A stretch of DNA of 64,000 bases from Tubulanus polymorphus (taxonomy: Eukaryota; Animalia; Nemertea), in assembly GCF_964204645.1 (NCBI RefSeq), contig NC_134025.1:14446001-14510000 (forward strand), read 5' to 3'. Made by a program: the position numbers and the translations under genes. The notes under the pieces were generated by a model that saw nothing but the letters and a program-made list of their open reading frames with translations, was not told the DNA's origin and did no database searches. Shown here piece after piece: positions 1 through 36,042 of the stretch. Each line of letters starts with the position of its first letter. The first letter of the stretch is position 1.

Positions 1-2484
1 AGCGGATGAACTCAGAAATACGTTCTATTCACTAAACATCGATGAGGCTACAAGCCAATCCACAAAAAAAGTTCTGTCGATCCTTGTCAGTTACTTTAGT
101 GAGAAGGAGAGACAAGTTGTTGTCAGACATTTGGCCTCATGTAATCTTATTTCTACCACTAGCGCATCTGTTTATAGTGCTTTGGTTGAGGTTTTCCAGC
201 AGCGTGATTTAGATTATAACCGATTAATGTCTGTCCTCCTCGACAGCTGTAACGTCATGAGAGGTAGTAAAACTGGCTTGGAGAAGTTAATAAAGGATAA
301 TTTGGCCCAGCATTTGCTTGACATCGACGGTGATTCGATACATCACACTCACAACGCCGCGAAACATTTCACAAAAGAATTTGATGGATTCATAGAGAAA
401 TTGATAACCGATATTGCAAGTGATTTGCATTTTTCTAAGGACGTAGAAAACTGGCTCCAAATTATCCTTGATCTCTTAGGCATTGGGTTTTCGATGCCCG
501 AGCGGTACGTCGGAACCCGATGGCTATCGGTCCATGATGCGGCGTCAGACCTTATTCGCAAAATCGATGGATATACTCTGCTGTACTATGGATTTATACA
601 GAAAGACAAAATCGTGTATTTGGCTCTATGTGTTGACATATATCGCAAATTTAACTTGTCTGAACCCACGAAAGATGAGATCAAAAAAATCTATGTTGCT
701 GCTGCCGCCAAATGGAAAAATCTGACAGCGGAAGGAAAAGAAAGAAAGCTACGAATTATCGATAAACTCATCATTCAGCGTAAAAAGCTTAAGCTTTATG
801 TGCATTTTTACACGGCGGTATTGCCAGTTCTAAAAAGATATGTACTCTTATTCCAAACTGTTGAAGAGCCATGTGTCCACAAGCTCAATGATGAGCAATG
901 TCAATTATTCAGGGATTTCATTTCCCTTTGTGTTAAACCATCTGCAATTCCTGAATCGGATCGAAAGTTGTCTTCTCTGATAATCTCAGAAAACCTCCTG
1001 CCAACCACTGAGATGTTCATAGGCGAATCTGCATCCCAAATAATTGCGGGGGAAAATAAATCATCCCAGTTTGTCAAAGACTTTCATGATCGTGTCGAGA
1101 GGGCCTATCTCAATACCGCCCAGTACCTCGCTAAAAAAATGCCTATCGACAATAAACTTCTCCGGTATATCTCGGCAATAGACCCAAAATGCCAGCGACA
1201 TGAAACGGCACTGAAATATATGAAAAAACTCCCACAATTAGTCGTCAATGTTCTGGCTAATGAAACGGAGATCAACTGTTATAAATTAGAAGTGCATAAA
1301 TTCCACTCGGATTCCAGTCTGCCAGCAGCAGTTGATAAAGATGGAAAGCAAGTTAGAATCGATTCCTGGTGGGCTGCTGTACATGATTTGGGCAAATATC
1401 CATACCTCTGTCGCATGGTATTTGCTTTACTTAGCTGTTTCAGTTGCCCAGTTGTCGAGAGCTCGTTTAGCATTATGGGCGAAATTCTGAACAGCACAAC
1501 CAATAGACTTCATGTCAAATCTTTCAGCGCAATCCAGAGTGTGAAATACGGATTAGGCAAAACGTCAGCTGTAGACTTTTTCAAAAGAGAAGATATTCTT
1601 CATGACCCTGTGTGTCCAAATCTCGTTAAAAATATGAACACTGCAGCTAAACGATACAAGGATGAATTGCAGAGTGAAAAAGATAAGAAAGCGGCTCGTA
1701 TGGAGGAACTTCAGGCTAAAGAGGTTAAGAAAGTTTCAAAACGCAAAGCCCGCGAACAGTGCATCTCAGCTGCAAAGAAAGCCCGAGAGGCACATGTATC
1801 TGCTATGCGTGCAAAACAACGACAAGCTAAAAGACATAAGCAGATGGAACTTGTAAGACTATTAAAAAAGAAGTAATCTCTGGCTTGTCCACTATTGGAA
1901 AAACATTTATGTGTTTTGTTAAATAAAATGATGCCGACTGACTGTACTGACTATGTACATGTAGTATGTTTAGATTGGTAATGATGTGTACATGTGTTTT
2001 ATAGAATATTTTTCCAAACCTTACTTCGTTAGAAAATTCATAAGATAACCCACTGTTCTATTTAAGTTTTTTTTATGGAAATCTAGCTTGTTGTGATATC
2101 AGTTTATTAAAAATTAGTGCTTTAATGATGCATGCTGGAAAATAAAGTCTAATTCAATTATCTATTGCGTGGGCAAGTGATCGTCGCTTTCAAGAAGATT
2201 GATCAATGTGGGATTCGAACCTACTAGTTACATTATAGTTGTCTCTGCATCAATTATGTCCCTGCCGTCTTGGAACTAGCAGTGTGTTGTGTAAAACATG
2301 GACGATGTTGTTTGATTTTTTGGCTTTGCTGAGTGAAATTTCAATCGGAAAACTGCTGAAAAACGATCTGAGATGATGTGAAAATCAAAAATTTTCTGGG
2401 GGAGGGCCCCCGGACCCCCCGTAATTACTTCGCGCCTACGGCGCTCGTTTCCGCCTTTTCAATAATGGTCTGTTATCATCCCTG
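1..2484 (+). mobile_element. hAT-superfamily DNA transposon (right part), inserted into the pPolB gene of Polinton copy 1
   Basis: Carries a hAT transposase ORF. Ends in ...GTTATCATCCCTG (reverse complement CAGGGATGATAAC, Ac-like TIR). The next base starts GTTTATAAAATCTGAAG, identical to copy 2 pPolB at 27590. Confidence 0.85.
2..1876 (+). CDS. hAT family DDE transposase (5'-partial; frame open from window start)
   Basis: Frame 2 reads YSLNIDEATS (first catalytic D), LLDSCNVMRG (second D), TRWLS (RW motif), SWW and VVESSFS (dimerisation domain, catalytic E); basic C-terminal tail. Confidence 0.88.
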   Translation, partial: ADELRNTFYSLNIDEATSQSTKKVLSILVSYFSEKERQVVVRHLASCNLISTTSASVYSALVEVFQQRDLDYNRLMSVLLDSCNVMRGSKTGLEKLIKDNLAQHLLDIDGDSIHHTHNAAKHFTKEFDGFIEKLITDIASDLHFSKDVENWLQIILDLLGIGFSMPERYVGTRWLSVHDAASDLIRKIDGYTLLYYGFIQKDKIVYLALCVDIYRKFNLSEPTKDEIKKIYVAAAAKWKNLTAEGKERKLRIIDKLIIQRKKLKLYVHFYTAVLPVLKRYVLLFQTVEEPCVHKLNDEQCQLFRDFISLCVKPSAIPESDRKLSSLIISENLLPTTEMFIGESASQIIAGENKSSQFVKDFHDRVERAYLNTAQYLAKKMPIDNKLLRYISAIDPKCQRHETALKYMKKLPQLVVNVLANETEINCYKLEVHKFHSDSSLPAAVDKDGKQVRIDSWWAAVHDLGKYPYLCRMVFALLSCFSCPVVESSFSIMGEILNSTTNRLHVKSFSAIQSVKYGLGKTSAVDFFKREDILHDPVCPNLVKNMNTAAKRYKDELQSEKDKKAARMEELQAKEVKKVSKRKAREQCISAAKKAREAHVSAMRAKQRQAKRHKQMELVRLLKKK

Positions 2485-5400
2485 GTTTATAAAATCTGAA
2501 GATAAACCAATATATAATATAAATTCTCATTCACAACATATTATATATAAACAACATATAGATGATAAATTAGATAAATGTTATAATGAAGTAAAAACTA
2601 AAATAGAAGAGAAATATTTTGAAGGATCTGGTTTAATATTTGATGAAATAATATTTATGACTTTACATGTTTATAACACAAAATATAATAAGTTAACTAA
2701 ATCAAAACCAATTGATGAAAATAATGTATCATATTATAAAGAACGAGATATTGAAGCATCGAGTTATATTAAACTACCATTTAAAACTAATGCTGTTATA
2801 AATGTACAAAATGAAGATGATAAATGTTTTCTATGGGCTATAATAAGTTGTTTACATCCTGCAACTTATAATATTTGTAGATTAACTCATTATAAACCAT
2901 TTGAAAATAATTATAAGATAGATAAGTATCCTGTTATAATTAAAAACATCCCAAAAATAGAAAGAGATAATAATATAAAGATAAATGTATTTGATTTAAT
3001 CAAATTACCAAATACAAAAGGTAACAATATAAAACATTATACATTAGAACCTTTATATCTATCAAAAGATTATGATTCAAACGATGTTATAGATATACTA
3101 TATTATGAGAATCATTATATGTGGATTAAACAAATCGACTTATTTTTTAAATCAGAAAATGATCACCATAAAATATATCTTTGTAGAAAATGTTTACATA
3201 AATTCAGTAATGAAAGTACATTATTAAATCATAAACAATTATGTGAAAATCATGATTATTGTAAATTAGTTTTACCAAATGAAAAGGATAAAATATTAGA
3301 ATTCAAAAAATATGATTACAAAAATAAAGTACCATTTGTAATATATGGAGATTTTGAATCATTAAATAAAGAACTAACTGATCAAGATAGAAAAGAAATA
3401 TATTATAAGAGAAAGAAATTAAATTCTAATGAAAATGATTATTCTGAAGAACCACCAAAAACAAATACTATTAAAAAGATTCATCAATCAGCTGCTGCTT
3501 TCGGGTTATATATAAAATCTGATTATCCAGAACTAATTGAAAGTGAATATTATGATTATAGAAATGAAAATGTTATCAATCATTTTTGTGACTTATTAAT
3601 TGAATATGAAATAAGATTTAGTAAATTATTGAATACAAATATAGAAATTATAATGACAGAAGAAGATAAAGAAGCATTTGCGTTTGCAGATAAATGTTAT
3701 TATTGTGAAAAGATATTTAATTATAAAGATAAAAAAGTAAGAGACCATGATCATTTGAACGGAAAGTTTAGAGGCGCTGCACATGAGAATTGTAACTTAC
3801 AAGCTAAGAAAATTAATTTTGTACCAGTTATATTTCATAATCTATCAGGATATGATGCACATTTATTCATCAAACAGTTATGCCATAAAATAGAAGAAAT
3901 TAATAATGAAATAGAAAGATTAAATTCAAATAGATCAAAAGATAAAATACCAACTTATAAATTTAGAATGTTAGCTAAAACATCTGAGAATTATATATCA
4001 TTCCAATTTGGGTGTTTAAGATTTATAGATTCATATAGATTTTTAAATAGTTCATTAGATAACTTATCAAAATCATTAGTTGATGATGAATTAAAGATAT
4101 TAAAAGAATATTACCCAAATAATGATGATTTCCAATTAATGAGATATAAAGGCGCAATTCCATATTCTTTCTATAAAAATCATAATGATTTTAACATAAC
4201 TGAATTATTGAAAGATGATGAATTAAAAAATGAATATGTTAAAGATGAAGTATATAATAGAACATTGAATATTTGGAATCATTTCAAAATAGAAAATCAT
4301 GGGCAATTAGTAGATTTATATTTAAAATCAGATGTATTATTATTAACCGATATATTCGAAAGGTTTAGAGATGTAAACCTAAAATATTTCAATATTGATC
4401 CATGTCATTGTTATTCATCACCAGGATTAACATGGGATTGTGGATTAAAATTTACAGATATAAAAATGGATTTGTTAACAAATATAGATCAATTACTATT
4501 ATTTGAAAAGTCTATAAGAGGAGGTGTTTCAGGTGTATAAGGGGATAGATATTTCAATGTAAATGATAACCCTGGATATAAGTTATTATATATAGATGCA
4601 AATAATCTATATGGTTGGGCAATGATGGAACCACAACCTTATGGAGTATTTGAATTAACTGAAGTTTTACAGAATGAAAATAATGATAAATTTGATTGGA
4701 AGAAAAGAATTCTAGATATTGCAGATGATTCAGATACTGGTTACTTTTTTGTTGTAGATTTAGAATATCCTGAACACATTAAATTTAAATCTAGAAATCT
4801 AGCATACTGTCCAGAACATAAAACTGTAACACATGAAGAATTATCAAATTACCAAAAAAGAATTAAACCCGAAAATCATATTCATACAGAAAAGTTAATG
4901 GTAACTCAAGAAGATAAATATAATTATGTAGTACATTATAGAATGTTAAAGTTTTATTTGAATCAAGGAATGATTCTAAAAAAAGTACATAGATATATTT
5001 CATTCAGCCAATCTAAGTGGTTAGAAAAATATATAGATTTTAACACCAAACAGAGAACTGAAGCTAAAACTGATTTCGAGAAAGATTTCTTCAAGTTAAT
5101 GAACAATGCATTCTATGGTAAGACTTGTGAAAATATTAGAAATAGAAATGATATTGAGTTAGTTAGTAATGGTAAAAGAATTAGACATTTACAATCATAT
5201 CCTAAGTTCATTGGTAACAGAATATTTGATGAAAATTTAGCCGCAGTTAAAATGAGAAGAACATCAATGAAATTTAATAAACCAATCTATGTTGGCGCTT
5301 CAGTTTTAGAATTATCAAAATTACTAATGTATGAATTCTATTATAATGTATTACAACCACTTTTTGGAGAAAAACATATAGAAATATTATATTTTGATAC

Positions 5401-5929
5401 TGACAGTTACATATTAAAGATAAAAACTGATAACATAACTGATGATTTAAAAACATTAAAACATCATTTTGATTTCAGTAATTATCCTAAAAATCATGAA
5501 TTGTTTAGCAATGATAATAAAAAAGTTCCAGGGAAGTTTAAGGATGAATTAGGTGGTGAAGAAATGATTGAATTCATCGGTATTAGATCTAAAATGTATT
5601 CATATAAAACTAATGAACATGAAGCTAAAAAGTTAAAAGGAATAACCAAAAGTGTAGTAGAAAAGAATATTCATTTCAAAGATTACATCAATTGTATATT
5701 CAATGAAGAAGTTAGAAAACATAAAATGAGATGTTTAAGATCTGAAGATCGTGAAATGTTTATTGAAGAAATTGAAAAGATAAGTCTAAACCCATTTGAT
5801 GATAAAAGATATATTTTAGATGATGGAATTCATACAGTTGCTTATGGTTGCAATTTAGATGAATACTTAAAATTTAAAAGAGAAGAAACAAAAGAGAACG
5901 AGATAATGAAAAGAATTCTAACGTGTTAA
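2485..5929 (+). pseudogene. Protein-primed family B DNA polymerase (pPolB), 5'-truncated, premature stop at 4538-4540
   Basis: ExoI YGDFES, ExoII FHNLSGYD, ExoIII YLKSDV, motif A YIDANNLYG, motif B KLMNNAFYGK, motif C YFDTDS. TTA>TAA relative to copy 2. Confidence 0.93.
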
Positions 5930-5958
5930 TCAAATTTTGATAAAAATATGTATTATAA

Positions 5959-6363
5959 ATGGAGAGTAAACAAGCGCACAGTGAGAACAACAAATCATTT
6001 CTAGATAGAATAAAAGATACTACAAATGTAAAATCTGTAGATTATAAATTCAAAAAGTTAACAGAATTAACAATCCATAAGAAATATTTAATTACAAATA
6101 TTGATACAGTTACTAATAACTATAGAGATAAATTAGTTATACACTTAGAATATGAAGGATTAAAAGGAAATACATATAAATTCAGAACATATTTACCAGA
6201 TAGATTTCATAGATTATCAAGTGATGATCTAGAAGAATTATGTTCTGGTGATTTCTATTTCGTATACAAAGGTAAGAATGAAAAAGGGCACCATGAAATA
6301 GATTTCGAAAAGAAAATATGTAAAATAAATGGCGGAATTAAAAGAATACAGAATATTTGTTGA
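5959..6363 (+). CDS. Small conserved Polinton protein, possibly OB-fold ssDNA-binding (3' end frameshifted relative to copy 2)
   Basis: FKKLTEL...YLPDRF...FVYKGK pattern; homologues at 31075 and 22844. Function inferred from position next to pPolB. Confidence 0.55.
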   Translation: MESKQAHSENNKSFLDRIKDTTNVKSVDYKFKKLTELTIHKKYLITNIDTVTNNYRDKLVIHLEYEGLKGNTYKFRTYLPDRFHRLSSDDLEELCSGDFYFVYKGKNEKGHHEIDFEKKICKINGGIKRIQNIC

Positions 6364-8243
6364 TTCAAGAAAACTTACTAATTATAAATCTCATAATTTA
6401 CTAGTACAATTAGATAGAGAATTCAAGAATTGTGTAGATTTAAGTTTATGTAATTCTTTTTATAATATATCGAATAAAACTATTGAACATAGAGCCTTTT
6501 TAGTTTTTAATAGACACATAGATTCATGGGTCTATATATATTTAAAACCGGGGTTATATAATTTAGATACATTAGCACAAGAAATTAATAGAAAAGCGTG
6601 GCACAAATTAGGTAGTAGTTCTGGGTTTAGTATTAGATTTTTAAAAAGTGATAGTTCTGATAGAATAAAGATAAGGTTGTCTAATAGTGAAAAACATAAA
6701 TTTATGGTAAAAAAACCTATAGCTAAACTGTTAGGAATTCTTCCAGATAGATCTTTTACAAATATTGATGCTGCTACACCAAACTTAATACCTTACACGC
6801 ATTTTTTGACGCCTTATAAAACGTTACCATTATGAAACCTAAACAATGCTAACCATTCAGCGTCATTTTACAAACGACAGCCGTAAATCGATGTGCAAAT
6901 CGTCACAGGTTTAGCTATCTGGCAAGCTATCTGGCAAAATATTATTGACATAGATGTAGAATGGCTTCCTGTGATTATATAATGACCTATATTTGAACGT
7001 CGAAATGTTATATTGCATTGAATATCATTAGAAGACGTATTGTAATAGTAAAGGATGTATGATTATATCAGAAGCGGCAGGCATAAATAGAAATGATAAG
7101 TAAATCGGATTATTCGGTTAAATGGCGGATGTATTCACGATGCGGAAGTCTGATATAAAAGTCAGACCCTGACGTGGGCATGCCGGTGGAATGACGAAGC
7201 TATCTACGATGTGTGTAGGGCAAGCGTGAATTTCATCAGCGGCTACAAGCGGTCAATATGAAAACATATAATTTCAATATTCAAACGTTTTAGAAAATAT
7301 GTTTGATATTAGGAGTATGCAAGTTTCGTGAGATTAGCAATTTATAATAGCATAGCTGTCATATACGGCTCCGTGTCCTCTGATGGCATGTGTATTAGGT
7401 GACAATTCAATTCAATTCTTTATTGATCCTTATTACATTGAAATTCCGGGATAAAATGCCCAAATTCAATAAATACAAATTTTAAAATAAATTAATACAA
7501 CATACATGACACACGGGTAATTCATACAGAACAACATAAGCATGTTATTTTAAATGACAATGTCTACTTCAACCCACCCAGACTCAAGACTCTAGGATAT
7601 CGAGTGACAGCCAAACCCGTGGCCCGGGCCGGCTGGCTAGGCCACACGATATGCTCGAAGTCATGATGAAGCAGACATCAGAAGAGCTCTTTTTTCTTCA
7701 TCCATGGAGGCAATGAAGTTGCAGACCAGCTTAGAGGCATAAGTAAATGAAGTCGGTCGCAAGTTCGCGATCAATTATTGAGAATTTTCAATAAAAATAT
7801 TTAAACCACTACTAGAGTCGAAGACCTGTATCATCTACCCAATCGCCAAATCTCATCATTCCCCAAATTTCTTAAAACTTCGATTTCAAATTTGCAATTC
7901 CACATTAGCTTAGCCCAGAAATTCTACATTTTTCCCCAGGCGTCAAATAATTTTCTAAAATTAATTTTCTTGTTATATTTATTGCAATTTAATCGATCCT
8001 ACAAAAACATTCGAAGCAACTAAAGATATAACTTGTAATTCTGGTTTACTAAACATTTTACCATTGAAGAATGTTAAAGAATTTGGAACGCAAATAAATT
8101 ATAATTTAACAGAATGTGATTTCAAACCATGCATTCCTCGTTTTAATAATTTTAGATTAGAAATTAGAAATCACAATGGATATTTAATTGATTTGAATAA
8201 CTTTCCTGTAATTTATGAATTAGTTATAAGATGTAAAGAGTAA
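6329..8243 (+). pseudogene. Minor capsid protein (penton-like), split by a ~1.17-kb insertion
   Basis: N-terminal part 6329-6804. Frame resumes ~7974 as YIYCNLIDP...LLNILP...FNNFRLEIRNHNGYLIDLNNFPVIYELVI, the typical single-jelly-roll minor capsid C-terminus; contiguous in copy 3 (49156-49638). Confidence 0.75.
6805..7973. mobile_element. Non-autonomous insertion with Helentron/HINE-like structure, containing a probable LINE 3' tail fragment
   Basis: Absent from copies 2 and 3. Inserted in a T-run. Subterminal inverted repeats TTTGACGCCT (6805) / AGGCGTCAAA (7938), then hairpin TAATTTT-CT-AAAATTA and CTTGT end. (AATTC)3-TTTATT tail near 7404. Confidence 0.6.
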
Positions 8244-8263
8244 TTTTTTTCACTATATAAATG
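8242..8263 (+). promoter_or_regulatory. Poxvirus-late-like promoter motif AATTTTTTT-N6/7-TAAATG (first of seven consecutive copies; others before 8603, 8849, 9291, 9742, 11140, 12624)
   Basis: Same T-run, 6-7 nt spacer and TAAATG at each start codon; conserved in divergent copy 3. Confidence 0.65.
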
Positions 8264-8602
8264 AATATAACTGTTGGACCGAGTATATGTTTTGGGTTTG
8301 ATTTTAAACATGGTAAAGAAATGAGAATTAAACTAAATGATGTAATTACTGATATAAAAAGTAAATCACTTAACAATGCATCAATGATTAATAAAGAAAA
8401 TTATAATATAGAAAAAGTAATTGATTTAATTAAATCACCTTTAGAATATTATGAATTAAATGAAGATGGAATTATTGATGATATTAAAAACATATTAACC
8501 AAAATATATGATAATCATAAAAGTAGTAATGAAATAAATGTTGAAATAATCATAAATAAGTTAACTAAATATTTTGATGATAGTAATTTTTTTGATAAAT
8601 AA
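8261..8602 (+). CDS. Polinton hypothetical protein (113 aa)
   Basis: Intact ORF with promoter motif; decayed homologue at ~48785-49140 (-). Confidence 0.7.
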   Translation: MNITVGPSICFGFDFKHGKEMRIKLNDVITDIKSKSLNNASMINKENYNIEKVIDLIKSPLEYYELNEDGIIDDIKNILTKIYDNHKSSNEINVEIIINKLTKYFDDSNFFDK

Positions 8603-8824
8603 ATGAGTGATAATAAGTGGATAATAACTGGATTATATAATGGAGCATTACTATCAGTTGGAACTGTTGGTTATTCAATGGTATTAAAAAAAGTATTTAA
8701 AATGGGAAGTGTTAATGTTGATAGATTTGATATAAATGATATTTCAAAATTAACATTAGCAGTTACTTTATCTAATTTAACTATTGATTATTTGGAAAAA
8801 CAAAAATATATTCCTCCCATATAA
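8603..8824 (+). CDS. Small hydrophobic (putative membrane) protein, 73 aa
   Basis: Two hydrophobic/amphipathic segments; homologue at ~48563-48783 (-). Confidence 0.72.
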   Translation: MSDNKWIITGLYNGALLSVGTVGYSMVLKKVFKMGSVNVDRFDINDISKLTLAVTLSNLTIDYLEKQKYIPPI

Positions 8825-8848
8825 ATGCATAATTTTTTTGCTAAATAA

Positions 8849-9271
8849 ATGGCTTCTGCAATTATAACTATTATAGGATCGGCAATTGTTAACGCTTTAG
8901 CATTTACTGGTGGCGGTTATTTATTTAAGCATATTGATAAAAATAGTTCATTAGGAGAACAAAGAAGACATAACTTAGCATTAGAGAAATACAATAAAGC
9001 AGCAGAAGAATATAGAGAAAAAAGACAAAACTATATGGATTACATCAATAAAGAATTATATGATCAGAAGATTTCACATAGAGATTTTCAATCAGTTGAT
9101 GATGCAATGAGTTTATATAACGCAGTAACAAATAAAGAAAAATTACATCTATACAAACCTAAATTATCAGATTATTATACCCCAAGTAATGAACAACAGA
9201 AATATGAAATAATTTGGATTTTAGGTGGAACAGTTATTGTTATATTTGTGGCGTATAAGTTTACTAATTAG
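8849..9271 (+). CDS. Membrane protein with N-terminal Gly/Ala-rich hydrophobic helix, coiled coil and C-terminal TM, 140 aa
   Basis: MASAIITIIGSAIVNALAFTGGGYLF ... IIWILGGTVIVIFVAY; homologue at ~48117-48536 (-). Confidence 0.75.
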   Translation: MASAIITIIGSAIVNALAFTGGGYLFKHIDKNSSLGEQRRHNLALEKYNKAAEEYREKRQNYMDYINKELYDQKISHRDFQSVDDAMSLYNAVTNKEKLHLYKPKLSDYYTPSNEQQKYEIIWILGGTVIVIFVAYKFTN

Positions 9272-9290
9272 TAATTTTTTTGCTAAATAA

Positions 9291-9725
9291 ATGGAAGATA
9301 AAGTTGATAATATTGATATTATTCCTCATGATATAAATAAAACTAAATTAAAAACATATTTAGAAAAACAAATATTAGAATTTGAAAGTGACTTAAAAGT
9401 TAAAAAGAAAAAATATTTAAAAAGTAAAATTATATATTATCTTATTATCAGTGGTTCGGTTACAATTAGTTCTGTAATAACATTTCTAGCAATATTCAGT
9501 CCATAAAAACCTTTAGCTATATCAATTGGTGTATTAGGATTAAGTTCAAGTGTTTTAACTGGTATAAGTTCAAAATTAAATATAAAAAGTAATAAAGAAA
9601 AAATTAAAACTAATATAAAAGAAATTAATAAATTGAAGAAAACACTAGATTATATAATAAGTTTAAATGGTCATATAACAGTTGAAGAACAAGATAAATT
9701 ATTAAAAGAATTAATAAATTATTAA
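9291..9725 (+). pseudogene. Two-TM membrane protein with flanking coiled coils (premature stop at 9504-9506)
   Basis: TM1 IIYYLIISGSVTISSVITFLAIF; reading continues in frame after the stop as PLAISIGVLGLSSSVLTGIS. Copy 3 homologue has TTA at this codon. Confidence 0.65.
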
Positions 9726-9741
9726 TTTTTTAATTAAATAA

Positions 9742-11123
9742 ATGGTAGATAGTTTTCCAAAAGCTTTCCAATATAATAAATCAATTAAATATAATATTCC
9801 AGCAATAGATTTTAATAAAAATATTACATATAGAAATGAAGTTTTAGATTCATTAACTAATTTAGAAATTTATGTTACTGAAACTAATAATTTTAATGCA
9901 AAGATGGAAAATATATTTCATGTATATTTAATTAATTTTAAAAAATTGAAAGATGAAAAACAATGGTTATTAAAATCTAATATGAAGTATTGGCAGAACC
10001 AATTAAATTTTGCTGTTTATTGTGCAACAACAGGTTGTGGAATTAGTTGGAATGATCATTTGAATAATTCTAAATATAAATTAATTCAAAGGTTATTTAG
10101 ATTTCATACATACTTTCAAATCAGAATAATATTAAATGAATTAGAGTGCGCTTTACCAGGATCTAGGTATTTTAAAGAATTAGATAATAATATTAATTTA
10201 TCAAAGTTTTATAAAATTTGTAATGAATTAAATATAGATATAAATAATTCTGATTTTAGAACAAAAATTGGAACAATAAGATCACTTCCTTGCCCTAAAA
10301 AGATTGCAGAATATTGTGCACTTCCCATACCATCTAATAGTTTGTATAATATCTATAGTAATAAATTAGGTTATGGTAAAATAGAAACTAAGGATTTAGA
10401 AACATTAAATTTCAATAAATTACCGACATTTTATGATAATTTAAAACAAGAAAACAATAATGGTTGGGTTTATTTCATTTTAGAAAATAATGAAGGTTTT
10501 ACAAAATCAGGTATACAAAGAATAGATCAATCTATTAGAACTTATTTGATATGTATTTTAGGTGCGCAAGTTGAAACAAGATCCCCAATAATTGGAAATT
10601 GAAATACATCATTTGATACACAGAAACAATTCAAAGTATTATTTGAAGATTCAATTCATAATGATAAAAATAGATCGATTCCAGAAAACATTGTAAGATA
10701 TCAAAATTATTTAGATAAATCACATATTAGATTAAATTATTGTATAGGCCCTAATCTATTAATTATTTCTAATGATTTAGTACTAAAGATGGGAAATATA
10801 ATTGGTTATAATAATCTAATTAAAACTGCAACAATAAATAATTCATTTGGATTGAATGATATAAATAAAAAGATAATTAATGCTCCAAAATTAATGGAAG
10901 GTGAAAAAAATAAAAAACATATTCAATCAACAGAAACTAAAACTAAGAATATTAAATTAAATAATGATTCTAAAATAAAAGGTTACAATACATCAGAAGA
11001 TATAAAAACTGATAATATTCAACATGAAATAATTAAACTAAATGATGATAATAAATCCCATGAAAATTAGCTATAACTTGTATAGGAATTGTAATCGGAG
11101 GAATATTAAATTTTAAATTTTAA
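9742..11123 (+). pseudogene. Conserved Polinton protein (WQNQLNFAVYCATTGCGIS motif) with C-terminal hydrophobic anchor; nonsense/frameshift lesions
   Basis: ORFs 9742-10602 and 10789-11070 correspond to one gene in copy 2 (32097-33086 plus tail); tail IAITCIGIVIGGI. Confidence 0.7.
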
Positions 11124-11139
11124 TTTTTTTATTATGTAA

Positions 11140-12603
11140 ATGGATGTAGAAGGTGGAGAAGATAATGAAATGGACGGCATGGGAAATAATAATGAAGGAT
11201 ATATTGATGATGATTATAATGATGCAGAAACTAATATTGATAATGATGATGAATCAGCATATAATTCTAATTTAGCAGATAGTGGTTCTAAAGGTCAATC
11301 AACAGATGAATTTGATAGAAGAACTAGATCGAGAATAAATCCTGAAAATGAAAATCAAGGTTTATCGAGACGAGATTTAGAAAATAAAGAATTTATATAT
11401 AAGTTCCAACGTGCATTTGAAAGATCTGTATATAATATAAATTACAGAGGTGCCAGATTTTTAGTAGAAGATTTAAAATATTTAGATGGTGAATATTATT
11501 ATAAATTGAAAGATGATTATTATATTAATATCACTAATCAAAGGACAAGACTAATTAAAATATTAGCAAAATCAACTTTGAGTGATTTAGAACCAGATAA
11601 AATTAAGAGAATAAGTAATAGTAATGAAATAACTGATGTTACACAAGAAGAAAGAGATGATAATATAAGAGTATTTAGTCAAAGAATTGATGACTTATTT
11701 AAAATAATCGATGATAATCCAGAAACAGAAACAACTTCTGAACAGAATAAAACTTCCAAAACTAGTAAACTTAAATCAAATAAAGTTCCAATTGAAAAAC
11801 TTTTACCGAATGGATTAATTGATGCAACAGATCAACAATTAGAAGATTTGAATAATATATTTTCTGATGAAGCAATTAGAGAAATTAAAAGTATAAGACT
11901 TGCATCTGATAAAATTGCGCATGATAAAAGTATAAGAGATTTAAAAATTAGAACTTTAGAAGATGAATTATTTAAATCAAGAAAAGAATCGGAACCACTA
12001 AAATTAGATAGAGATAATAAAGTTATTGAAGAAATCGAATTTAAAAAAAGAAATGCGTATTTAGAAAAAGAAAAAGATGATTTAGTATATAACATAGAAT
12101 TATAAAAAGAAGAAATTAAATTGTTATTTAAATCATATGATTATAATATTAATAGATTAAAAGTTATTTTTAAAGATTTGTTGATAAAACCAGATTCTAA
12201 AATATCATTGAAGGATAGAATAAAATTATTATTAAAGTTAGAAGGAATAACAATTCTTTCAATTCTAACAGCTGTAACTATGTTATTTACAACAATTGGT
12301 TTAGCAATATCAAATGCTTTGAAATCTACTCCTACTCCCAATAAACCGGATAAACCCCCGAATGATAATAATTCTATACAAGATAAAGTTAAAGATGGTT
12401 TAAAGAAATTAGCAAAATATTTATGGGAACTATCTAAAAAATCTGCTGCAGCATTGCCAGGAGTTATTGCATCAATTGTTGGTTTTATATTGAAATCTGC
12501 AGGAAACATTATTAACTTTGCTGCTGAAAATATTATTTTATTTTTAATTACAGTTGTAAGTGCAATTATTTTTGGGTTAGTAAACATGATAAAAAATAAA
12601 TAA
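11140..12603 (+). pseudogene. Acidic N-terminus / long coiled-coil protein with C-terminal hydrophobic helices (in-frame stop at 12103-12105)
   Basis: ORFs 11140-12105 and 12121-12603 are in the same frame and are contiguous in copy 2 (33432-34742). Confidence 0.72.
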
Positions 12604-12623
12604 TTAATTTTTTTGTTAAATAA

Positions 12624-13871
12624 ATGAGTGGGAGTTATATCAATCCTTCTAAGAATCATAGAATATCTAATGCTATTAAAGCAGAAAGATCACATCATAT
12701 AATTACTCATAACCCTTCTAATATTAATCCCGATGAAACTTTATATGTTAGAATTCCTCGATTAACACAAAATACTTTTTATGTTCCATATAGTATTTAT
12801 TTATCAGCCGATATAAAAGTAATCGGTAATAATAATAATTATGTTGTTGATAATGTTGGAAGATATTTGATTAAAAAATTAACAATAAAGATTGGTCCAG
12901 AAACAGTTTTCTCATCAGAAGATTATAATTTATTTATGCATTATAAAGATTTATGGTTAACTAAAGAAAATAGAAATAATATGATATTTCAAGGAATCAA
13001 ATCAGAAAACAAAAATAAATTAAGATCAGAAGCACATAATGCAATATTAACTAATTCTGTAGATAAATTGATAAAAAGTATATATGGAAGCAAATATAAA
13101 ATTCCATTAGACTTTGAATTGATAAATAACAATGCACCTTTATATAAATACGCAATTCAAGAAGATGTTATATTCGAAATAACATTTGCTCCTGTAAATG
13201 AAATTGTATTATCTAGCGTTAATAAAGATATGAGTTATAAATTATCGAATATATGTTTAGAATATGATACAGTAACTGATGAAAATATTGCAAGTATAAT
13301 TCAAACTCAATACAATCAAGGATTTTCATTATTATATGATTATATTGATAAATTTAAAACTGTAACTATTAATGCAAATGATGAAATTATCAATGAGAAT
13401 ATTAACTTCCCAAGAAGATCTATTAAAGGTATATTAATATTTTTTACCATTGCAACATATACTTATGGCGCAATAAATGTTGATAATTATTATAATCCTG
13501 AAATAACAAAAGTAGAAATAACTATCGAAGGAATAGCAAATAAAATATTTTGTCAAGGAATGAGAATGATTGATCAATGGCCAGAAATTAGAAAACATTT
13601 TATGAATGAAAAAGTGAAATCATCTGAAAATTGTAACATTAATCAAATTGATTATTATACCGGTAATAAATATGCATTATGGTTAGATTTTAGAACAACA
13701 GAGGATAATTCATTACATGGTTCTGGAAAAAAATTACAAAACACTAAAGATGGAATACAATTATTCATGACAAAGAATAAAGGAATCAAAAATTTTTAAA
13801 TGCACATTTATATTATATCTGACGCGCAATTAAATATTGTAAATTCTCAATTAAATAGTGTTATGTATTAA
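12624..13871 (+). CDS. Major capsid protein (double jelly-roll type), frameshift near the C-terminus
   Basis: ~415-aa beta-rich ORF conserved in all three copies (ITHNPSNINPDETLYVRIP, NICLEYD, INENINFPRRSIKGIL, ALWLDFR); position and size fit a Polinton MCP. Confidence 0.8.
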
Positions 13872-13903
13872 AATTTTAACTTTAATAAAAATTTATATAA
13901 TAA

Positions 13904-14788
13904 ATGGAAGGAGGTAAAGTATATAAACATATTCCATACATCGATACACATGAAAATAATGATGGTTTATATTATGTAATACCTTGTAATATAGCTTTGA
14001 TATTTGATCCTATTTTCAAAATTTATAAAACTAAACTAATAGAAATCGATAATAATAAAAGTGAAGTTGTTGATAATTTAAGTAATGTAATACCTTCTAC
14101 ATCTAATAATGTAATACCTTCTACATCTAATAATGTAATACCTACTACATCTAATAATGTAATACCTACTACATCTAATAATGTAATACCTTCTACATCT
14201 AATAATGTAATACCTTCTACATCTAATAATGTAATACCTTCTACATCTAATAATGAAATAATATTAAATGTTAGTGAAAATAGAAATTATTGTGGATATT
14301 GTAAAAGTGAATTTTCAAACGCTACATCAAATTGGAATAAACATATGAATACAAGGGTACATATAAATAATGTTATAGAACGTGTTGGTTTAAAAGAATT
14401 TATAGAACACCCATTTAGATATGTTACAAAGTTTGTTTCAAATCAAAAAGTAAATGGTGAAAAAATATATGAAGATTTATTATTAGCAACACCTAATAAA
14501 GATGAATTAGATCTAACCGATGCTAATGAAATATTAGGATCAAACACTGTAAATGAAATATTAGGAGCAAACACTAATAAAGATTCTATGAAACATAAAG
14601 TAGAAAATAATGATAAATTTGATTGGATGAATAAGCATAACAATGAAACAACTATTGATGATGCGGTAAAAAAGGTGAAGAATAAGTATAAAAATAATAG
14701 AGAATTTGAAGAAGAAAATTCGGTAGAGAATTTAAATAAATTGTTAGGGTCTGATAGTGAATTGGAGAGTGATGATAAAAGTGATTAA
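13904..14788 (+). CDS. Zinc-finger protein with VIPSTSNN repeats and acidic tail
   Basis: CGYC...HMNTRVH C2H2/U1-like finger; seven 8-aa repeats. Confidence 0.7.
   Translation: MEGGKVYKHIPYIDTHENNDGLYYVIPCNIALIFDPIFKIYKTKLIEIDNNKSEVVDNLSNVIPSTSNNVIPSTSNNVIPTTSNNVIPTTSNNVIPSTSNNVIPSTSNNVIPSTSNNEIILNVSENRNYCGYCKSEFSNATSNWNKHMNTRVHINNVIERVGLKEFIEHPFRYVTKFVSNQKVNGEKIYEDLLLATPNKDELDLTDANEILGSNTVNEILGANTNKDSMKHKVENNDKFDWMNKHNNETTIDDAVKKVKNKYKNNREFEEENSVENLNKLLGSDSELESDDKSD
14087..14254 (+). repeat. 24-bp coding minisatellite x7 (GTAATACCTWCTACATCTAATAAT)
   Basis: Directly visible; x5 in copy 2 (36241-36360). Confidence 0.95.
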
Positions 14789-15187
14789 GATATCAATTAT
14801 ATTTAACACAAATAATAATATTAGTTGAAAATTGTATAAAATAATAGTAAATAAAAAAGGGGGTTTTAAGTATTTAAGGCATCTAATAGGGTATCTAATA
14901 AATATCTAATACATATCTAATACATATTATTTGAAAATACCTTAAATTATATTTCTTTTTTAAATTTATATTGAAACCTCAGTAATTATAAATAACCTTT
15001 ATTATTTTCAAACTTATTCATATATTAGTTGAAAAAATAAAAATAAATTGGTTGAAAATTGTATAAATAATATTTATTTTAAAAAAGGGGGTTTTAAGTA
15101 TTTAAGGTATCTAATAGGTTATCAGGTATTAGGGTATCTAATGGGGTATCAGGTATTAGGGTATCTAATACATAGGTATACAAATAG

Positions 15188-15758
15188 TTATTTTATAAAT
15201 TTATATTCATAGGGAAATTGTAATCTCAGTAATAATTTTGAACCTTTATTATTCTTTAATTTATTCATATATTCATCATGTAATTCAGTAGGTATAATTT
15301 GATTTTCTTCCAATGATTGTTGCATAGATTTTTTATCTTTGTTATAAAATAAAACTAGAAATCTTATATTCTCCCTAAAGTCTTTAACAATTGAATTATA
15401 TTTTTGATTTAAAACCCATGTTGTTATCCCAAAATGTCTTCCAGAGAAAGCTAAATAACATAACTCACTTTCTCTCACTTTTGAGTCATGTAAATTAGCG
15501 CAATCATCTACAATGAATAATGTATTTGATCCTTTATAAGTATCAATTGCTATTTTAATACAATTATCTAAATTTCGTTTTACTATTTTAGGATCTAATA
15601 TAATTCATTTCATAAGTAGGACAAAATAATATTATATTATCAAAATGATTCTTATAAATAGTTTCTAACAAATCTAATATGAAATGTGTTTTACCACAAT
15701 TGGTTACACCAGTAACTAACATATTATGCGGTTCGAATATAAATAAATCTTTATTCAT
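15188..15758 (-). pseudogene. A32-like (FtsK-HerA) packaging ATPase with internal deletion
   Basis: Walker A GVTNCGKT, Walker B FIVDD, GRH motif; intact in copy 2. Confidence 0.88.
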
Positions 15759-16802
15759 TTATTCTTTTAATTTTACTAGATAAAATCCATTCATTAAATT
15801 TATCATCATATCCTTTATATTTCACCAAAGAATACTTTTTTCCTTTAAGAGTTTTTGTTTTCAATACTTTTTCTATTTTGTATTTCATCTGGATTTGGTA
15901 CAAGTGATAATTCTTGTTCATAGAAATAACCTAATATTTCTTCATCTTTTAAATCTTCTAGTTTATATACAAATGGTTTAGTTAATATTATCTTTTTAAT
16001 CTTGAATATTTCTTCAGTAAAATTTGGAGTATAACCTTTATAAAATGTTTTTCTATATTTAGATATTCTAACGTGTTGTCCTATTTTAAATTTAGGTTCG
16101 CCGAAATCATGTGTAACAAATGCTCCATATAAATTATTCCAAACTATTTCCGAATTATCTTCTTTTCTAGCTTGTATAGGTTTCATATTTATAGAACTAT
16201 GTTTAGAATTATTATAACCTTTCACTAAATCATCTAACACATCGATATATTTATATGTTTCATTAGCAGTAAAATATTTCCACATTCTAGTTTTCAATGT
16301 TTTATTAAATCTTTCTATTATAGATGCTTTTTCATCTGAGTGTGTTGAAAAATAGTCTACATCGTTATCAGATAATAGTTTTTTAAAATGTTTGTTATAA
16401 AATTCCTTACCTTCATCAAATTGTATCTTATCTGGAATAGCTTCTTTAAATATTGATTTAAAAGCATTTGTCACTTCTGTATCGACTGAATATGTCTATA
16501 ACATTCAGTATCCAGAAATATCCTTTGTTGTATTCCTCTAAGTTCTTCATGTCAATTAAATCTGCTTGCCATTGTTGATCGATATATGAAACCATAACTT
16601 TTCTTATTAAATAAGTTTTATCCATTTTCTTGTGGATTTGATATGTTGGTTGATTTTGTAACCATGATTTCAATTCACTATATTTTACATTGCCATTTTC
16701 CTTATCAGATTTAATTTTACCCCATAATTCTGTAACGTTAGAATATGATACTTCACTTTCTGGGTTATAATATAAATCTCTTAAATATTGTTCTTTTTTC
16801 AT
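15751..16802 (-). pseudogene. Retroviral-like (rve) integrase with C-terminal chromodomain, frameshifted
   Basis: QWQADLID, IQFDEGKEF, IERFNKTLK (DDE); C-terminus KIEKVLK...LVKYKGYDDKFNEWI. Confidence 0.9.
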
Positions 16803-16808
16803 CTTATT

Positions 16809-17133
16809 TTAATCCATTAATAATAATTTAGATTTAGTTTCAATGGCTTTATGATTTGATTTATTTTCTGGTATAATAGGTTTATTGTCATTGGAATCAT
16901 CTTTATCATCATATTTGAATTTTGAATGTAATATATAATTTATAATTAATTCCAGCATTGGAAGAATCAGATGGATTATTACTTGAATCAATATCAGATA
17001 AAGTCTGTGATTCATTTATATTAGTTAATTCCTTTTTCTTAGCTTTTTTTAATTCTGAAGATCTTTTACCTAATTCTCTTGCCCATTTAATTTGTTTCTC
17101 GGATCTAGCCTTTTTCTTAACTCCATCACTCAT
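16809..17133 (-). pseudogene. Small basic protein (TM segment deleted relative to copy 2)
   Basis: MSDGVKKKARSEKQIKWARELGK; copy 2 version (39038-39328) has TM YITIGLVTVIILSGVIY. Confidence 0.6.
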
Positions 17134-17728
17134 TTATTTTAGTTAATTTTTGTTCTGATTCATTTTCTGTTTCGCTGTTTGGTTGTAGTACATCTGTTTC
17201 GTTCTTACCTGATTTATATTCCATAGGCTTGATATTCGAAAATGTTATGACGCCAGTAGAAATTAATGTCATAACAGATCCTAATTGAAATGAAGCATAA
17301 CCAACCCATTTTTGTAATTCAGTCATAACTAAGTAGTCATTTTTCAAATCACTATATAATTTATTTTCATCATCAATTGGTATTAACTGGTTACATAACT
17401 TAGAATAACATTTGACAATACCATCTGAAATAGAATCATTTATTCGGGCTAATCTTGCCTCTTCATAAATCTTAAAATATTTTATTACTTTATCCGGTTT
17501 CATAGAGTCTAGTTCTTGAAAAGTAATGGTCTTAGTTAAAAATTGTTTAGATTTGCCGCCAGCAATTAGTAACTCAAGATGGTGTTTACAATATAAATAG
17601 TATTCATAATCAATATTGTTATTAACTTGAATAGAATTAGAAACAACTGGATCCTTATTATCACTTATACCTAAATCATCTAATGTTTTTTCAATATCAA
17701 TACTATTCTTATTAGATTTCTTTGACAT
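17126..17728 (-). CDS. Polinton hypothetical protein (200 aa) with a hydrophobic segment
   Basis: Intact ORF with TAAATG start; disrupted homologue at 39321-39922. Confidence 0.7.
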   Translation of the reverse strand: MSKKSNKNSIDIEKTLDDLGISDNKDPVVSNSIQVNNNIDYEYYLYCKHHLELLIAGGKSKQFLTKTITFQELDSMKPDKVIKYFKIYEEARLARINDSISDGIVKCYSKLCNQLIPIDDENKLYSDLKNDYLVMTELQKWVGYASFQLGSVMTLISTGVITFSNIKPMEYKSGKNETDVLQPNSETENESEQKLTKINE

Positions 17729-18030
17729 TTATATTAGAGAAATTTAATAAGAAAAATATTATAAGTATTATAAAATGATACTAGATAGTTAAAGTTAAAG
17801 AATTCTAGTATTGACTACTGATACTAGCTATTTGAATTTAAAGAATTTCTATTTGAATCTATTCAAAATATAAAGTATTCTCTTTTTGAAAAGAAAATAT
17901 TAAAAATATAATAGAATTCACTTGCTAGTTGAAGTTATTGTTTTTTTAATATATTTTATTTGAATTCTATTTGATATCTCACTACTTTTGTTTATCTATT
18001 AGGAGCAGTAATCATAACTGTCCAGATAAG

Positions 18031-18711
18031 TCATTTCGGATCCTTGATATCAAATTCCTCAACGTATTGTTCATTATTTGGATCATTGTTCCATTGATCA
18101 ATAAATTTCTTTGCCTTTGTTAACTGTTCTGAATATAACTGTAAATCTAGTTTATTAGATTTAATTATGTTTTCCTTCTTTTCTAAAGGTCTTAAATTTT
18201 TCCAGTTCCATATTAGCTTCTTATTATAATCATCACTCATGTCAAATTTAGAAATCGGCAACACATAATCAATATGAAAGTATTCACCATAATTATCTAT
18301 ATTCATTTTATCATCGAATTGATATATTATCCATGATTTAAGAAATTTATCTGAACAACCCAATAAATTAGATAGTGTTTCTGAATGTGTTTCTTTGTTG
18401 AATAATTGTGTTAATCTAGATCTTAAGCATTGTTTCAATCTAAAATTAAGATCTGTTTGATATCTTTCTCTCATATATTCTGTCATATAATCATTATAAG
18501 CTTCTCTATTATCTTCTCGATATTGTTTGGTATATAGTTTAAAACAAGTTTTACAACAATATTGAAAACCATCTTTGCTAATCTTACGCTTATTAAATTC
18601 TGTTATAGCTAATTTATCTAATTCACATTTAGAACACTTCTTGTAGTATATATTTATAACACCACCAGTGTTATTTGTAATATTGATAATTTGTGGTTGT
18701 TCTGGTTCCAT
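18031..18711 (-). CDS. HNH endonuclease of the type common in large DNA viruses (first His changed to Tyr in this copy)
   Basis: CSKC...CKTC zinc ribbon; HID(Y)VLP...NWKNLRPLEKKENIIKSNK. Confidence 0.8.
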   Translation of the reverse strand: MEPEQPQIINITNNTGGVINIYYKKCSKCELDKLAITEFNKRKISKDGFQYCCKTCFKLYTKQYREDNREAYNDYMTEYMRERYQTDLNFRLKQCLRSRLTQLFNKETHSETLSNLLGCSDKFLKSWIIYQFDDKMNIDNYGEYFHIDYVLPISKFDMSDDYNKKLIWNWKNLRPLEKKENIIKSNKLDLQLYSEQLTKAKKFIDQWNNDPNNEQYVEEFDIKDPK

Positions 18712-18854
18712 TTATTATATGTATTTTTTACTAAATTGGTTAATATTTTAGAATCCTCTTCCATTTCTTCGACCAACGTCGTCCTTTTTCATTCCTCGTT
18801 GCTTTTGATAAGTTGTTTCGATTCCTTGATATTTAAATAATACCACTGGGAAAA

Positions 18855-19300
18855 AGCGCGCATTCATGCGCGCTTTTGCTTAATGCGCATGCGCTAATCA
18901 TAATTATATATTCATTATGTAAATTCTGTAAAATAGGAACAACCGAACACAGAAAATATCAAAACGTGTTCGCATTAAGCAAAACCGCGCATTCGTGGGC
19001 GCTTTTGATCAATGAGCATGCGCTAATCATAATTATATATAATTATGTAAATAGAAACAACCGACATGAAATATCTAAACTTGTTCGCATTAGGCAAACC
19101 GCGCATTCATGCGCGCTTTTGCTTAATGCGCATGCGTTAATCATAATTATATATTCATTATGTAAATTCTGTAAAATAGAAACAACCGACATGAAATATC
19201 TAAATCATACCACTGAGCAAACCGCGCATTCGTGCGCGCTTTTGATCAATGCGCATGCGCTAATCCTAATTATATATTCATTCTGAATAGAAACGACCGA
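18855..19300. repeat. Four ~114-129-bp tandem units with GCGC-rich cores (TGCGCATGCG)
   Basis: Units start near 18857, 18986, 19100 and 19223; absent from copy 2. Confidence 0.9.
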
Positions 19301-20019
19301 ACATAAAAATTCACCAATCAGATTTACACAATACATTATACAAGTTGTTCGGCCATTTCTTCCAATACATCATTTGATTTCTATAAATACAATTAATAAT
19401 TACAAACATTTTTTCAATTGCTGGTAAATATTTAACTACATCAACAAATGTTAAACTTAATCATTGGAGTCTTAATGTTTTTGAAATTCTTATATAGTTT
19501 CTTCGTCGATCTTTTGGCGATTCTTGTGTTTCTTGTGCTAATTTCTATTGGTTCGATATCCATTGCTGTTGATTCCTCAGTCAGAAAGAGTATCTTGAGT
19601 TTCTCTATCACTTCTTGATGCGTATGGCGTTTTATTAATCTAAAAGATATTAGCGGCAACTCTAGCCATCTAAAATATATACTAAATACACTTAAATATA
19701 TCTAAAGGTTTCATATTTAATAGCCCTAATAACTACAAAAAACAGTACTTACATTTAGATTTAGAATTGTAAACTATAAACTCCTAATTTCGTTTCGAGA
19801 GATAGAATATCCTGAGCGTAATGTTACAGCGCCTGTTCATTTCTTGCCACGTCATCTGGTTCCGGTTCTAGAGTGTTCTACACGTTTGCAATATTATGAC
19901 TCATATGTCTCGGCGTCATAGTAACAGCTGTAACAGCTGTGAATTTTAGATTTATTCAATAGTTCATTACATGAAATGTATATAGGCTCAAATAAAATCA
20001 TGTTCTAGTTTAAACAGCT

Positions 20020-20581
20020 ATGCATTATTTCAATCACACTTAACTAACACTTTTAATGTTTAAAAATCTAACTCACACAAATATGAATATTGAAATAATG
20101 TTGTAAATATATACTTTTATATTGAATAATCTGTCAATTTAAATGTTATTCATTTATATGATTATTTTAAGAGTAATAGGGGTAATGGGCTTTCAGGTTA
20201 AAGGTTGAACGGTCGAGCTCATTAAAAACAAAACATTAAAAGTAATTTAAAACTATAATATATTTTCATAACCGTGTGTATTTCAGTTGAATAATAGAAT
20301 AATTATCATTATTAAAATATATTTGATTATATGAATTTGTGTATTGTAAATAAATCAATTGGTCGCGGAGCGGAGCGGCAGCGAAGTGGAGCGACCAATT
20401 GATTTAATACAATATGCTTTTAAAATTAAAATTATTAATATCTTAGAATAAATATTTAGTTATAATATAAAATACACACGGTTATGAAAATATATTATAG
20501 TTTTAAATTACTTTTAATGTTTTGTTTTTAATGAGCTCGACCGTTCGACCTTTGATTTGAAAGCCCATTACCCCTATTACT
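20020..20581. repeat. Right terminal inverted repeat of copy 1, including ~410-bp fold-back hairpin (20172-20581)
   Basis: Matches 42400-42960 directly and 26580-26960 inverted; arms 20172-20283 and 20470-20581 are reverse complements with 4 mismatches. Confidence 0.92.
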
Positions 20582-22843: not shown

Positions 22844-23164
22844 ATGGCTGAGAGAAAAGTTTCCTAGCGTCAAAAAATAATAAAATAGAACCAGCAAAAA
22901 ACCGAAGTAAGAAAGTTAGTCGATGTTACAAAAGAAATTGAACGTAAAATATTAAAACTAGAAAAGATAAAAACTAAATGCGGAGAAAAAATATCAGCAA
23001 ATTTGAGTTACTGTATTGTTAGTACAACGCGAGAATTTAAAGTATTTTTACCTGATGAATGGGTTTCATTGAGTAAAGAGGAATTAAAAGATTTAGAAGG
23101 ATTTAGAATAATTTATCATGGAAAAAATGAAGACGGTCATCATGATTTGGAAATTGTTGAATAA
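22844..23164 (+). pseudogene. Divergent homologue of the Polinton 117/134-aa protein (fragment of a fourth related element)
   Basis: Translates as ...FKVFLPDEWVSLSKEELKDLEGFRIIYHGKNEDGHHDLEIVE*, versus FRTYLPDRFHRLSSEDLEELCSGDFYFVYKGKNEKGHHEIDFE in copy 2; frameshift near the start. Confidence 0.72.
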
Positions 23165-26989: not shown

Positions 26990-27011
26990 TAATAAGAAAT
27001 TTAGTATTAAA

Positions 27012-31045: not shown

Positions 31046-31074
31046 TCAAATTTTAATAAAAATATGTTATTAAA

Positions 31075-31428: not shown

Positions 31429-31445
31429 GAAAATATGTAAAATAA

Positions 31446-33276: not shown

Positions 33277-33292
33277 TATTTTTATTATGTAA

Positions 33293-34742: not shown

Positions 34743-34763
34743 TTAATTTTATTTGTTAAATAA

Positions 34764-36010: not shown

Positions 36011-36042
36011 AATTTTAACTTTAATAAAAATTTATATAATAA

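Follow-up and report, generated by a model that had tools for sequence, protein, structure and literature searches.

The 64,000-nucleotide stretch of the Tubulanus polymorphus (Nemertea) genome analysed here (contig NC_134025.1, positions 14,446,001 to 14,510,000 of the forward strand; hereafter the window, always at its full length) contains three decayed copies of an element that encodes a DNA polymerase of family B that is protein-primed (pPolB), an rve integrase, an A32-type packaging ATPase and a double-jelly-roll major capsid protein (MCP). Six further conserved genes of this element encode membrane-type proteins, several of them located between the MCP gene and that of a putative minor capsid protein (mCP). 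We report a comparative analysis of these genes, of the start motif that precedes many of them, and of the apparent absence of an adenovirus-type (adenain) maturation protease.

The element and its membrane-type genes

The window is AT-rich and contains microsatellites. Copies 1 and 2 jointly span the element, from within the left terminal repeat through the right end; an internal deletion has removed the 113-, 73-, 140- and 144-amino-acid (aa) genes from copy 2 (Table 1). The hallmarks of Polintons (Mavericks) are present: pPolB (PF03175, E 3e-10), an rve integrase (PF00665, E 1.8e-9) with a chromodomain, an ATPase matching Pfam Pox_A32 together with a double-jelly-roll MCP, and terminal inverted repeats, with arms at 26580-26957 and 42403-42776 in copy 2, the left terminus being incomplete. 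The MCP of L001, a close relative among the loci described below, was modelled as a double jelly roll (predicted local distance difference test, pLDDT, 86.5), with the capsids of the iridovirus SGIV and of PBCV-1 as top matches (E about 1e-16). The single PDB match of the candidate penton was PBCV-1 P1v1, at E 0.73, so the mCP label carried over from the first-pass annotation is used here tentatively. In one genomic read set, depth was roughly 500-600 over the element compared with about 40 in the left flank bin, which indicates that the element is multi-copy.

Table 1. Element copies, genes and motifs in the window (positions count from its first nucleotide)
Feature	Position	Strand	Remarks
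Copy 1	about 2465-20581	+	left end truncated
Copy 2	26580-42960	+	90-96% identical to copy 1
Copy 3	about 43268-53573	-	74-91% identical; more diverged, fragmented; block order unchanged
Right terminal repeat of copy 1	20020-20581
pPolB, copy 1	2465-5929	+	left-truncated, a single in-frame stop; Cys/His segment resembling vOTU, plus endonuclease VII insert
Putative minor capsid (penton) gene	6329-8240	+	split by foreign repeat of about 1.17 kb
Seven T6-N6/7-TAAATG motifs	8245-12626	+	one ahead of each gene, from the 113-aa gene through MCP
113-aa gene	8261-8602	+	same start motif; clade-specific (3 related loci)
F9, 73-aa amphipathic two-helix protein	8603-8824	+	reading frame intact; core gene, paired with F10
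F10, 140-aa protein	8849-9271	+	reading frame intact; N-terminal hydrophobic segment, charged helical middle, C-terminal transmembrane segment; core gene
F24, about 144-aa hairpin with two transmembrane segments	9291-9725	+	accessory; in-frame stop 9504-9506
F0, about 440-aa protein, predicted tail-anchored	9742 to about 11120	+	stop 10600-10602; frame break just before tail anchor
F1, about 485-aa protein	11140-12603	+	stop 12103-12105; N-terminus acidic; coiled coil; hydrophobic and amphipathic helices at C-terminus
MCP, double jelly roll, Polinton-3_NV lineage (by eye)	12624-13871	+	frame break near 3' end
A32-type packaging ATPase	15191-15758	-	split in copy 1
rve integrase with chromodomain	15751-16802	-	split in copy 1
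Gene adjoining integrase, single transmembrane segment	16809-17133	-	basic N-terminus; split in copy 1; core gene
F7, 200-aa conserved helical protein	17126-17728	-	moderately hydrophobic stretch; core gene

All five genes that the first-pass annotation had placed between the mCP and MCP genes exist, the two large ones encoding about 440 and 485 aa, and copy 3, on the minus strand, has them in unchanged order. The gene with a transmembrane (TM) segment reported beside the integrase gene is also there, intact in copy 2 at 39038-39328. That list was incomplete: the 113-aa gene carries the same start motif, and the conserved 200-aa gene F7 belongs to the set as well. In copy 1, F24, F0 and F1 are broken, and F9 and F10 are intact. 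The ratio of nonsynonymous to synonymous substitution rates was 0.11-0.56 in all 16 pairs tried (0.11-0.31 for F9), and the five block genes are under purifying selection.

Hydrophobic anchors were scored by a crude cut-off, a hydropathy of at least 1.6. It was reached by F1 (31/31), F10 (12/12), F24 (3/3), the single-TM protein (12/13), the F0 C-terminus (48/57) and F7 (14/18), compared with 0/21 ATPases, 0/7 integrases and 2/20 MCPs. The description of all five block proteins as membrane-type therefore stands for four, which have clear anchors, and not for the 73-aa F9, among whose relatives 1 of 14 reaches the cut-off; F9 is amphipathic, with a moment of 0.33-0.45. Hydrophobic N and C ends were found in 116 and 110, respectively, of 120 F10 homologs, and the C-terminus of F1 forms a hydrophobic bundle of helices. 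PDB sequence searches with F0, MCP, F1, F7, F9 and F10 gave one coiled-coil match and nothing else; PHROGs matches of the membrane proteins were limited to weak tape-measure and spanin hits (E 0.001-0.03), and ESM Atlas scores for F1 were all below 0.8. The F10 family comprises 3,786 homologs, one of them named from the sea slug Elysia marginata. Five others (P0490, P0518, P0527, P0528 and P0572) are filed under metagenome-assembled genomes of the bacterial symbiont Candidatus Thiodiazotropha, and probably represent host DNA in those bins.

Several other features accompany the copies. An apparently intact 549-aa open reading frame (ORF) resembling hAT transposases (227-1876) lies a short way left of the point where copy 1 is truncated, and a lone fragment between copies 1 and 2 (22904-23161) is 67% identical to the L001 homolog of a 134-aa gene. 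The repeat within the putative penton gene (6805-7973, about 1.17 kb) is a separate one, with about four times the depth of the element and loose ends at both borders. Between the MCP and ATPase genes lies an ORF of 294 or 278 aa that contains tandem repeats of 8 residues and a motif resembling a zinc finger (13904-14788 and 36043-36879), in place of which L001 has a different small ORF. An HNH-like ORF (weak Pfam match) occurs near the right terminal repeat (18031-18711 and 41702-42355).

Related loci and the search for a maturation protease

Searching with an F0 profile brought up 411 confirmed metagenome stretches; the best 80 of these serve here as loci L001 onward. All 16 loci of at least 7 kb carry F0, F1, mCP and MCP. 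Each of the eight that span the distance from the capsid genes to the integrase keeps F0, F1, F7, F9, F10 and the single-TM gene together with MCP, mCP and the ATPase, in three different gene orders and with either of two replicases; the other eight end before the missing genes. The replicase is pPolB in L067, L028 and the window, and a superfamily 1 (SF1) helicase in L013, L026 and L042. F9 lies immediately 5' of F10 in 11/11 loci where clustering found both, and F24 was found in 4/80. Gene order differs among clades, so that the block proposed as a unit is contiguous in the window's clade and split in other relatives, with the approximately 144-aa F24 as an accessory. The intact block of L001 (11.5 kb) has the same order as in the window, with about 70-89% amino-acid identity in most genes. 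A collection of viral contigs contained no relative of MCP, F0 or integrase.

Some of these loci differ in other respects. In copy 3 (43268-44400), the integrase gene directly follows that of MCP, as in L001 and unlike in copies 1 and 2; this gene order is that of a second subfamily within the same genome. L001, the closest intact relative, encodes a deoxynucleoside kinase (10343-10981). In the GC-rich clade, fiber-like genes lie between duplicated penton candidates (L011:58-900, L022:1745-2683, L013:680-1435), and two members match phage tail-fiber profiles.

The first-pass annotation had found no adenain-like protease in any copy and had proposed a profile search. Pfam detected no peptidase in the 234 window ORFs of at least 45 aa nor in 150/168 selected locus ORFs; it also recognised only one of three real proteases from the control loci L081-L083, and was rejected as too weak a test. 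Because Pfam missed the other two, a custom profile was built from 120 homologs of these proteases, spanning Polinton and virophage types, and run on all six frames. With near copies held out, it recovered the three control proteases at E 1e-31 or better, and it detected 13 of 14 held-out half-proteases. The window scored no better than E 2.7 and the 80 loci (379 kb) no better than E 0.42, so that the maturation protease typical of adintoviruses and Mavpol1-2 was not found by this profile in either set, and the claim held. Among the control loci, L083 has an adenain-type protease fused in frame onto the N-terminus of the rve integrase (2740-4248), and L082, a hybrid virophage, combines a Sputnik-type MCP with a Polinton-like pPolB and a protease.

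It is very improbable, in our judgement, that a maturation protease exists in a form too diverged for detection, in unsampled parts of the element, or as a product that a canonical Polinton or a helper virus provides within the same host. The Pfam result on the controls illustrates how easily such genes are missed, the related loci are not proven complete, and F0 has conserved Cys94, Cys99 and His122. The custom profile, however, covered both protease types and came back empty, the F0 model had no match to a papain-like fold, and Polinton-3_NV, N1, N1A and N1B_NV were listed as protease-negative in 2014 (PMC4028283, Table S1). The element is nevertheless not free of protease-like domains, because pPolB carries a vOTU-like segment, putatively assigned by motif, which aligns with the control polymerases and keeps the Cys and His.

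The F0 protein and the start motif

F0, with 3,346 clusters at 50% identity, consists of a globular domain of about 350 aa, a low-complexity stalk and a C-terminal TM segment. The structure check suggested in the first-pass annotation yielded a confident model from an intact relative (pLDDT 82; predicted template modelling score 0.77), with confidence extending over about 350 residues, disorder at 371-416 and then a single C-terminal helix, and it yielded no structural relative. Foldseek searches of PDB and BFVD produced nothing with E <0.001, ESM Atlas offered no usable match, and the best VIA-align result on 48,161 chains was Z 4.2, in rows where the C-terminal helix predominated; since the model exceeds the 400-residue advice of VIA-align, that search could have overlooked a domain match. 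The modelled fold is possibly new, which unmatched searches do not prove.

No signal peptide is apparent: among 87 diverse members, a hydrophobic segment is N-terminal in none and C-terminal in 67. A median of one residue follows the anchor, the end being short and neutral-to-basic, and glycosylation sequons are not enriched (183 observed, 198.5 expected). This layout suggests a tail-anchored protein with a cytosol-facing domain. Myristoylation was considered and rejected, as just 3/87 members start with MG.

The promoter motif that had been proposed for the block is real; defined as T6-N6/7-TAAATG, it occurs at 11 distinct sites in the window (16 overlapping matches), seven in copy 1 and four in copy 3, all at the starts of these genes and none elsewhere. 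Shuffled sequences gave 0.54 expected sites, with 0/100 shuffles reaching the observed number, and Markov controls gave 0.155 compared with the seven of copy 1. The pattern was defined from these very starts, and the absence of off-target sites is therefore the informative part. In relatives, TAAATG accounts for 10/11 starts in L001, 7/7 in L041, 6/6 in L038, 5/5 in L044 and 4/4 in L014, and head-to-head CATTTA...TAAATG pairs occur between divergent genes in loci of this type. It is absent from the GC-rich clade, L028 and L060, and the T-tract is mostly limited to the window's clade. The TAAATG label requires two to three changes on quick trees, that of F0 among them. A purely compositional origin is unlikely: loci with 38-39% GC have it at 7/7 and 6/6 starts, and L028, at 33% GC, at 0/11. 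The clades of L028, L060, L067 and L037 show other start contexts, with TATA-like runs or A-runs before the ATG, which are perhaps distinct promoter types.

A T at position -3 is unusual for a eukaryotic start context; in poxviruses, a slipped poly(A) leader substitutes for it. The motif fits the vaccinia late consensus in sequence, with a T-tract, a spacer and TAAATG at the start codon, as in the promoter described as a T-rich tract, a short spacer and TAAATG overlapping the start codon (PMC11423596, Table 1). This likeness is one of sequence alone, and, unlike in vaccinia, TAAATG starts characterise just part of the family. A nuclear core promoter or stop-start coupling is also a possible origin of the motif. 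For the proteins behind this motif, neither a sequence nor a fold link with poxvirus proteins was found.

Lineage and the possible role of the membrane proteins

The printed MCP of Polinton-3_NV from Nematostella vectensis shares, by eye, 42 of its first 50 residues with the MCP of L067, which falls in one alignment and tree with those of the window; by this comparison, the window capsid appears to belong to the Polinton-3_NV lineage. The comparison is one of MCP only, and the window MCP forms a distant subclade, that of L067 being 35% identical to that of L001, the window's close relative. Polinton-3_NV has been listed as positive for MCP and ATPase (PMC4028283, Table S1) and placed outside the Mavpol clade, beside PgVV (PMC11296320, PMC10120064). 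The absence of a protease from the window element agrees with this lineage. The accessible parts of the literature found do not describe a membrane gene set or start motif for Polinton-3_NV.

Polinton-like viruses (PLVs) have likewise been described as lacking a maturation protease (PMC4642659, PMC5499653, in the portions available), and those of the Aquintoviricetes, the PgVV/Gezel-14T group, resemble the window element in their minimal MCP-mCP-ATPase module without one (PMC4642659), and in the exchange of replicase between pPolB and SF1 helicase. Unlike PLVs, the window element is animal-associated, combines an rve integrase with pPolB and has six conserved membrane-type genes; PLV entry has been ascribed to lipases, and Pfam found none here. 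PLVs associated with entomopoxviruses were rejected as its family, since they encode the protease. With adintoviruses and Mavpol1-2, the element shares a pPolB with a vOTU-like segment, an rve integrase with a chromodomain, A32, a jelly-roll MCP and terminal repeats, and adintoviruses also have predicted membrane-active accessory genes (PMC8502044); it differs from them in lacking adenain, apparently in its MCP lineage, and in having no PLA2 or gasdermin match. Nematode Mavericks carry the glycoprotein B (gB)-like fusogen MFUS-1, and enveloped particles have been proposed for them (10.1101/2022.07.12.499685). MFUS-1, a single captured class III fusogen, has a signal peptide, whereas F0 lacks the peptide, is half the size and matches neither herpes gB nor any other fold.

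Two premises of the first-pass annotation require revision in this light. The contrast with canonical Polintons was misplaced because the capsid appears to lie outside the Maverick-Polinton clade, close to PgVV-group PLVs, where, in the sources cited above, absence of the protease is the published norm (PMC4028283, Table S1; PMC4642659). The statement that Polintons are presumed non-enveloped was too strong, given the gB-like fusogen and the adintovirus genes (10.1101/2022.07.12.499685, PMC8502044).

The proposal of a membrane-containing virion or a penetration or egress module remains the best inference, at the level of genes. With modest confidence, we favour the former: the element would be an integrated virus with a capsid of the Polinton-3_NV lineage, which lacks the protease, and its six membrane-type proteins would build a lipid-containing particle. 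Assembly and entry would then fall to a membrane instead of a capsid protein activated by adenain, and adenain processing would therefore not be needed. Such a particle would be built on cytoplasm-facing membranes. F0 would enter the membrane tail first, leaving its 350-aa domain toward the cytosol, in the role of a stalked surface or matrix protein; F1, through the helices at its C-terminus, would bend, break or penetrate the membrane; the link of this membrane to the capsid and the A32 ATPase would be made by F9, F10, F7 and the single-TM protein; and the start motif would drive late co-expression of these proteins with MCP, a late set to which the ATPase would also belong. The closest working models are the jelly-roll viruses with an inner membrane (PRD1, iridoviruses) and poxviruses, in which the membrane proteins of the mature virion likewise have no signal peptide.

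Several observations weigh against the lipid-containing particle, which is predicted here from genes. The likeness of MCP to that of PBCV-1 is uninformative on lipid, as such MCPs are general among Polintons and PLVs (PMC4028283, PMC10120064). The hydropathy cut-off is also passed by 19/54 ORFs of the mCP cluster, and F9 falls below it in 13/14 relatives. The presence of F0 across the loci is by construction, since they were retrieved through it, and none of these loci has been shown to be complete end to end. A cytosol-facing F0 domain would lie inside a budded envelope. Finally, no membrane protein of the element matched a known virion membrane protein in Pfam, PHROGs or PDB.

An appreciable, if clearly less probable, possibility is that these proteins are non-structural and the capsid naked: they could reshape host membranes to form a replication site or to allow lytic exit, in the manner of holins, viroporins or SLATT proteins, and F0 could be an organelle-anchored modulator of the host. 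The short neutral-to-basic end of the F0 tail anchor would suit this role, as would a weak spanin match of one F10 (E 0.0014). So would the accessory hairpin F24, whose two-TM topology presumably resembles that of SLATT effectors; its L001 and L041 members have no SLATT Pfam match. Holin-like and SLATT genes have also been reported across Polisuviricotina (10.64898/2026.10.13.758929). On the other hand, the six genes share the start motif of MCP where they have it in the window's block, and the retention of all six with the capsid module, despite rearrangement and replicase exchange, would seem to exceed the usual needs of exit.

That the proteins act in penetration, in or on a naked capsid, we regard as quite unlikely. 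They would then resemble adenovirus protein VI or the PLA2X, GasderminX and Cupiennin proteins of adintoviruses and be freed on entry, possibly after processing by the pPolB vOTU or a host protease. The amphipathic F9, the helical bundle of F1 and the retained vOTU-like residues are compatible with such a role, for which adintovirus genes offer precedents (PMC8502044). The anchors of F0, F10 and the single-TM protein, however, are ordinary transmembrane ones that need a bilayer; gasdermin matched none of 24 F1 members in Pfam, and neither gasdermin nor PLA2 matched any protein scanned; and the vOTU domain has been proposed to serve a different end, the release of the terminal protein from pPolB (PMC11161782).

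Both the capsid lineage and its lack of the protease had been reported before, and the absence of the protease is by itself not news. The six-gene membrane set, the unmatched F0 fold and the pox-like start motif, whose function we infer, are new. Our literature search found the gene set and the motif undescribed; preprint supplements, Repbase and subscription journals may annotate some of the genes. The accessible texts of related reports note animal ATPases near Aquintoviruses (10.64898/2026.06.19.733378) and describe pox-like virion genes for Meld23486 (10.1101/2024.03.25.586562); that of a coral survey mentions frequent unknown proteins without the word 'membrane' (PMC11131425). According to the available part of one of these, no Polinton virion has been seen to date (10.64898/2026.06.19.733378).

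The findings bear on how protease-less relatives of Polintons mature and enter cells, and they provide, for an abundant lineage (3,346 F0 clusters, 3,786 F10 homologs), defined candidate virion membrane proteins, one with a possibly new fold. A bolder scenario, which we consider rather improbable, is that of a widespread lineage of integrating invertebrate viruses enveloped in poxvirus style on open cytoplasmic membranes, equipped with membrane-biogenesis and entry proteins of their own, a new fold among them, and in part satellites that depend on the polymerase of an undiscovered pox-like helper to transcribe their late genes. If true, this would be the first animal counterpart of the protist virophages with a matched promoter. 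It makes a sharp prediction: transcripts with poly(A) leaders starting within TAAAT would link animal Polinton-like elements with helper viruses of the cytoplasm.

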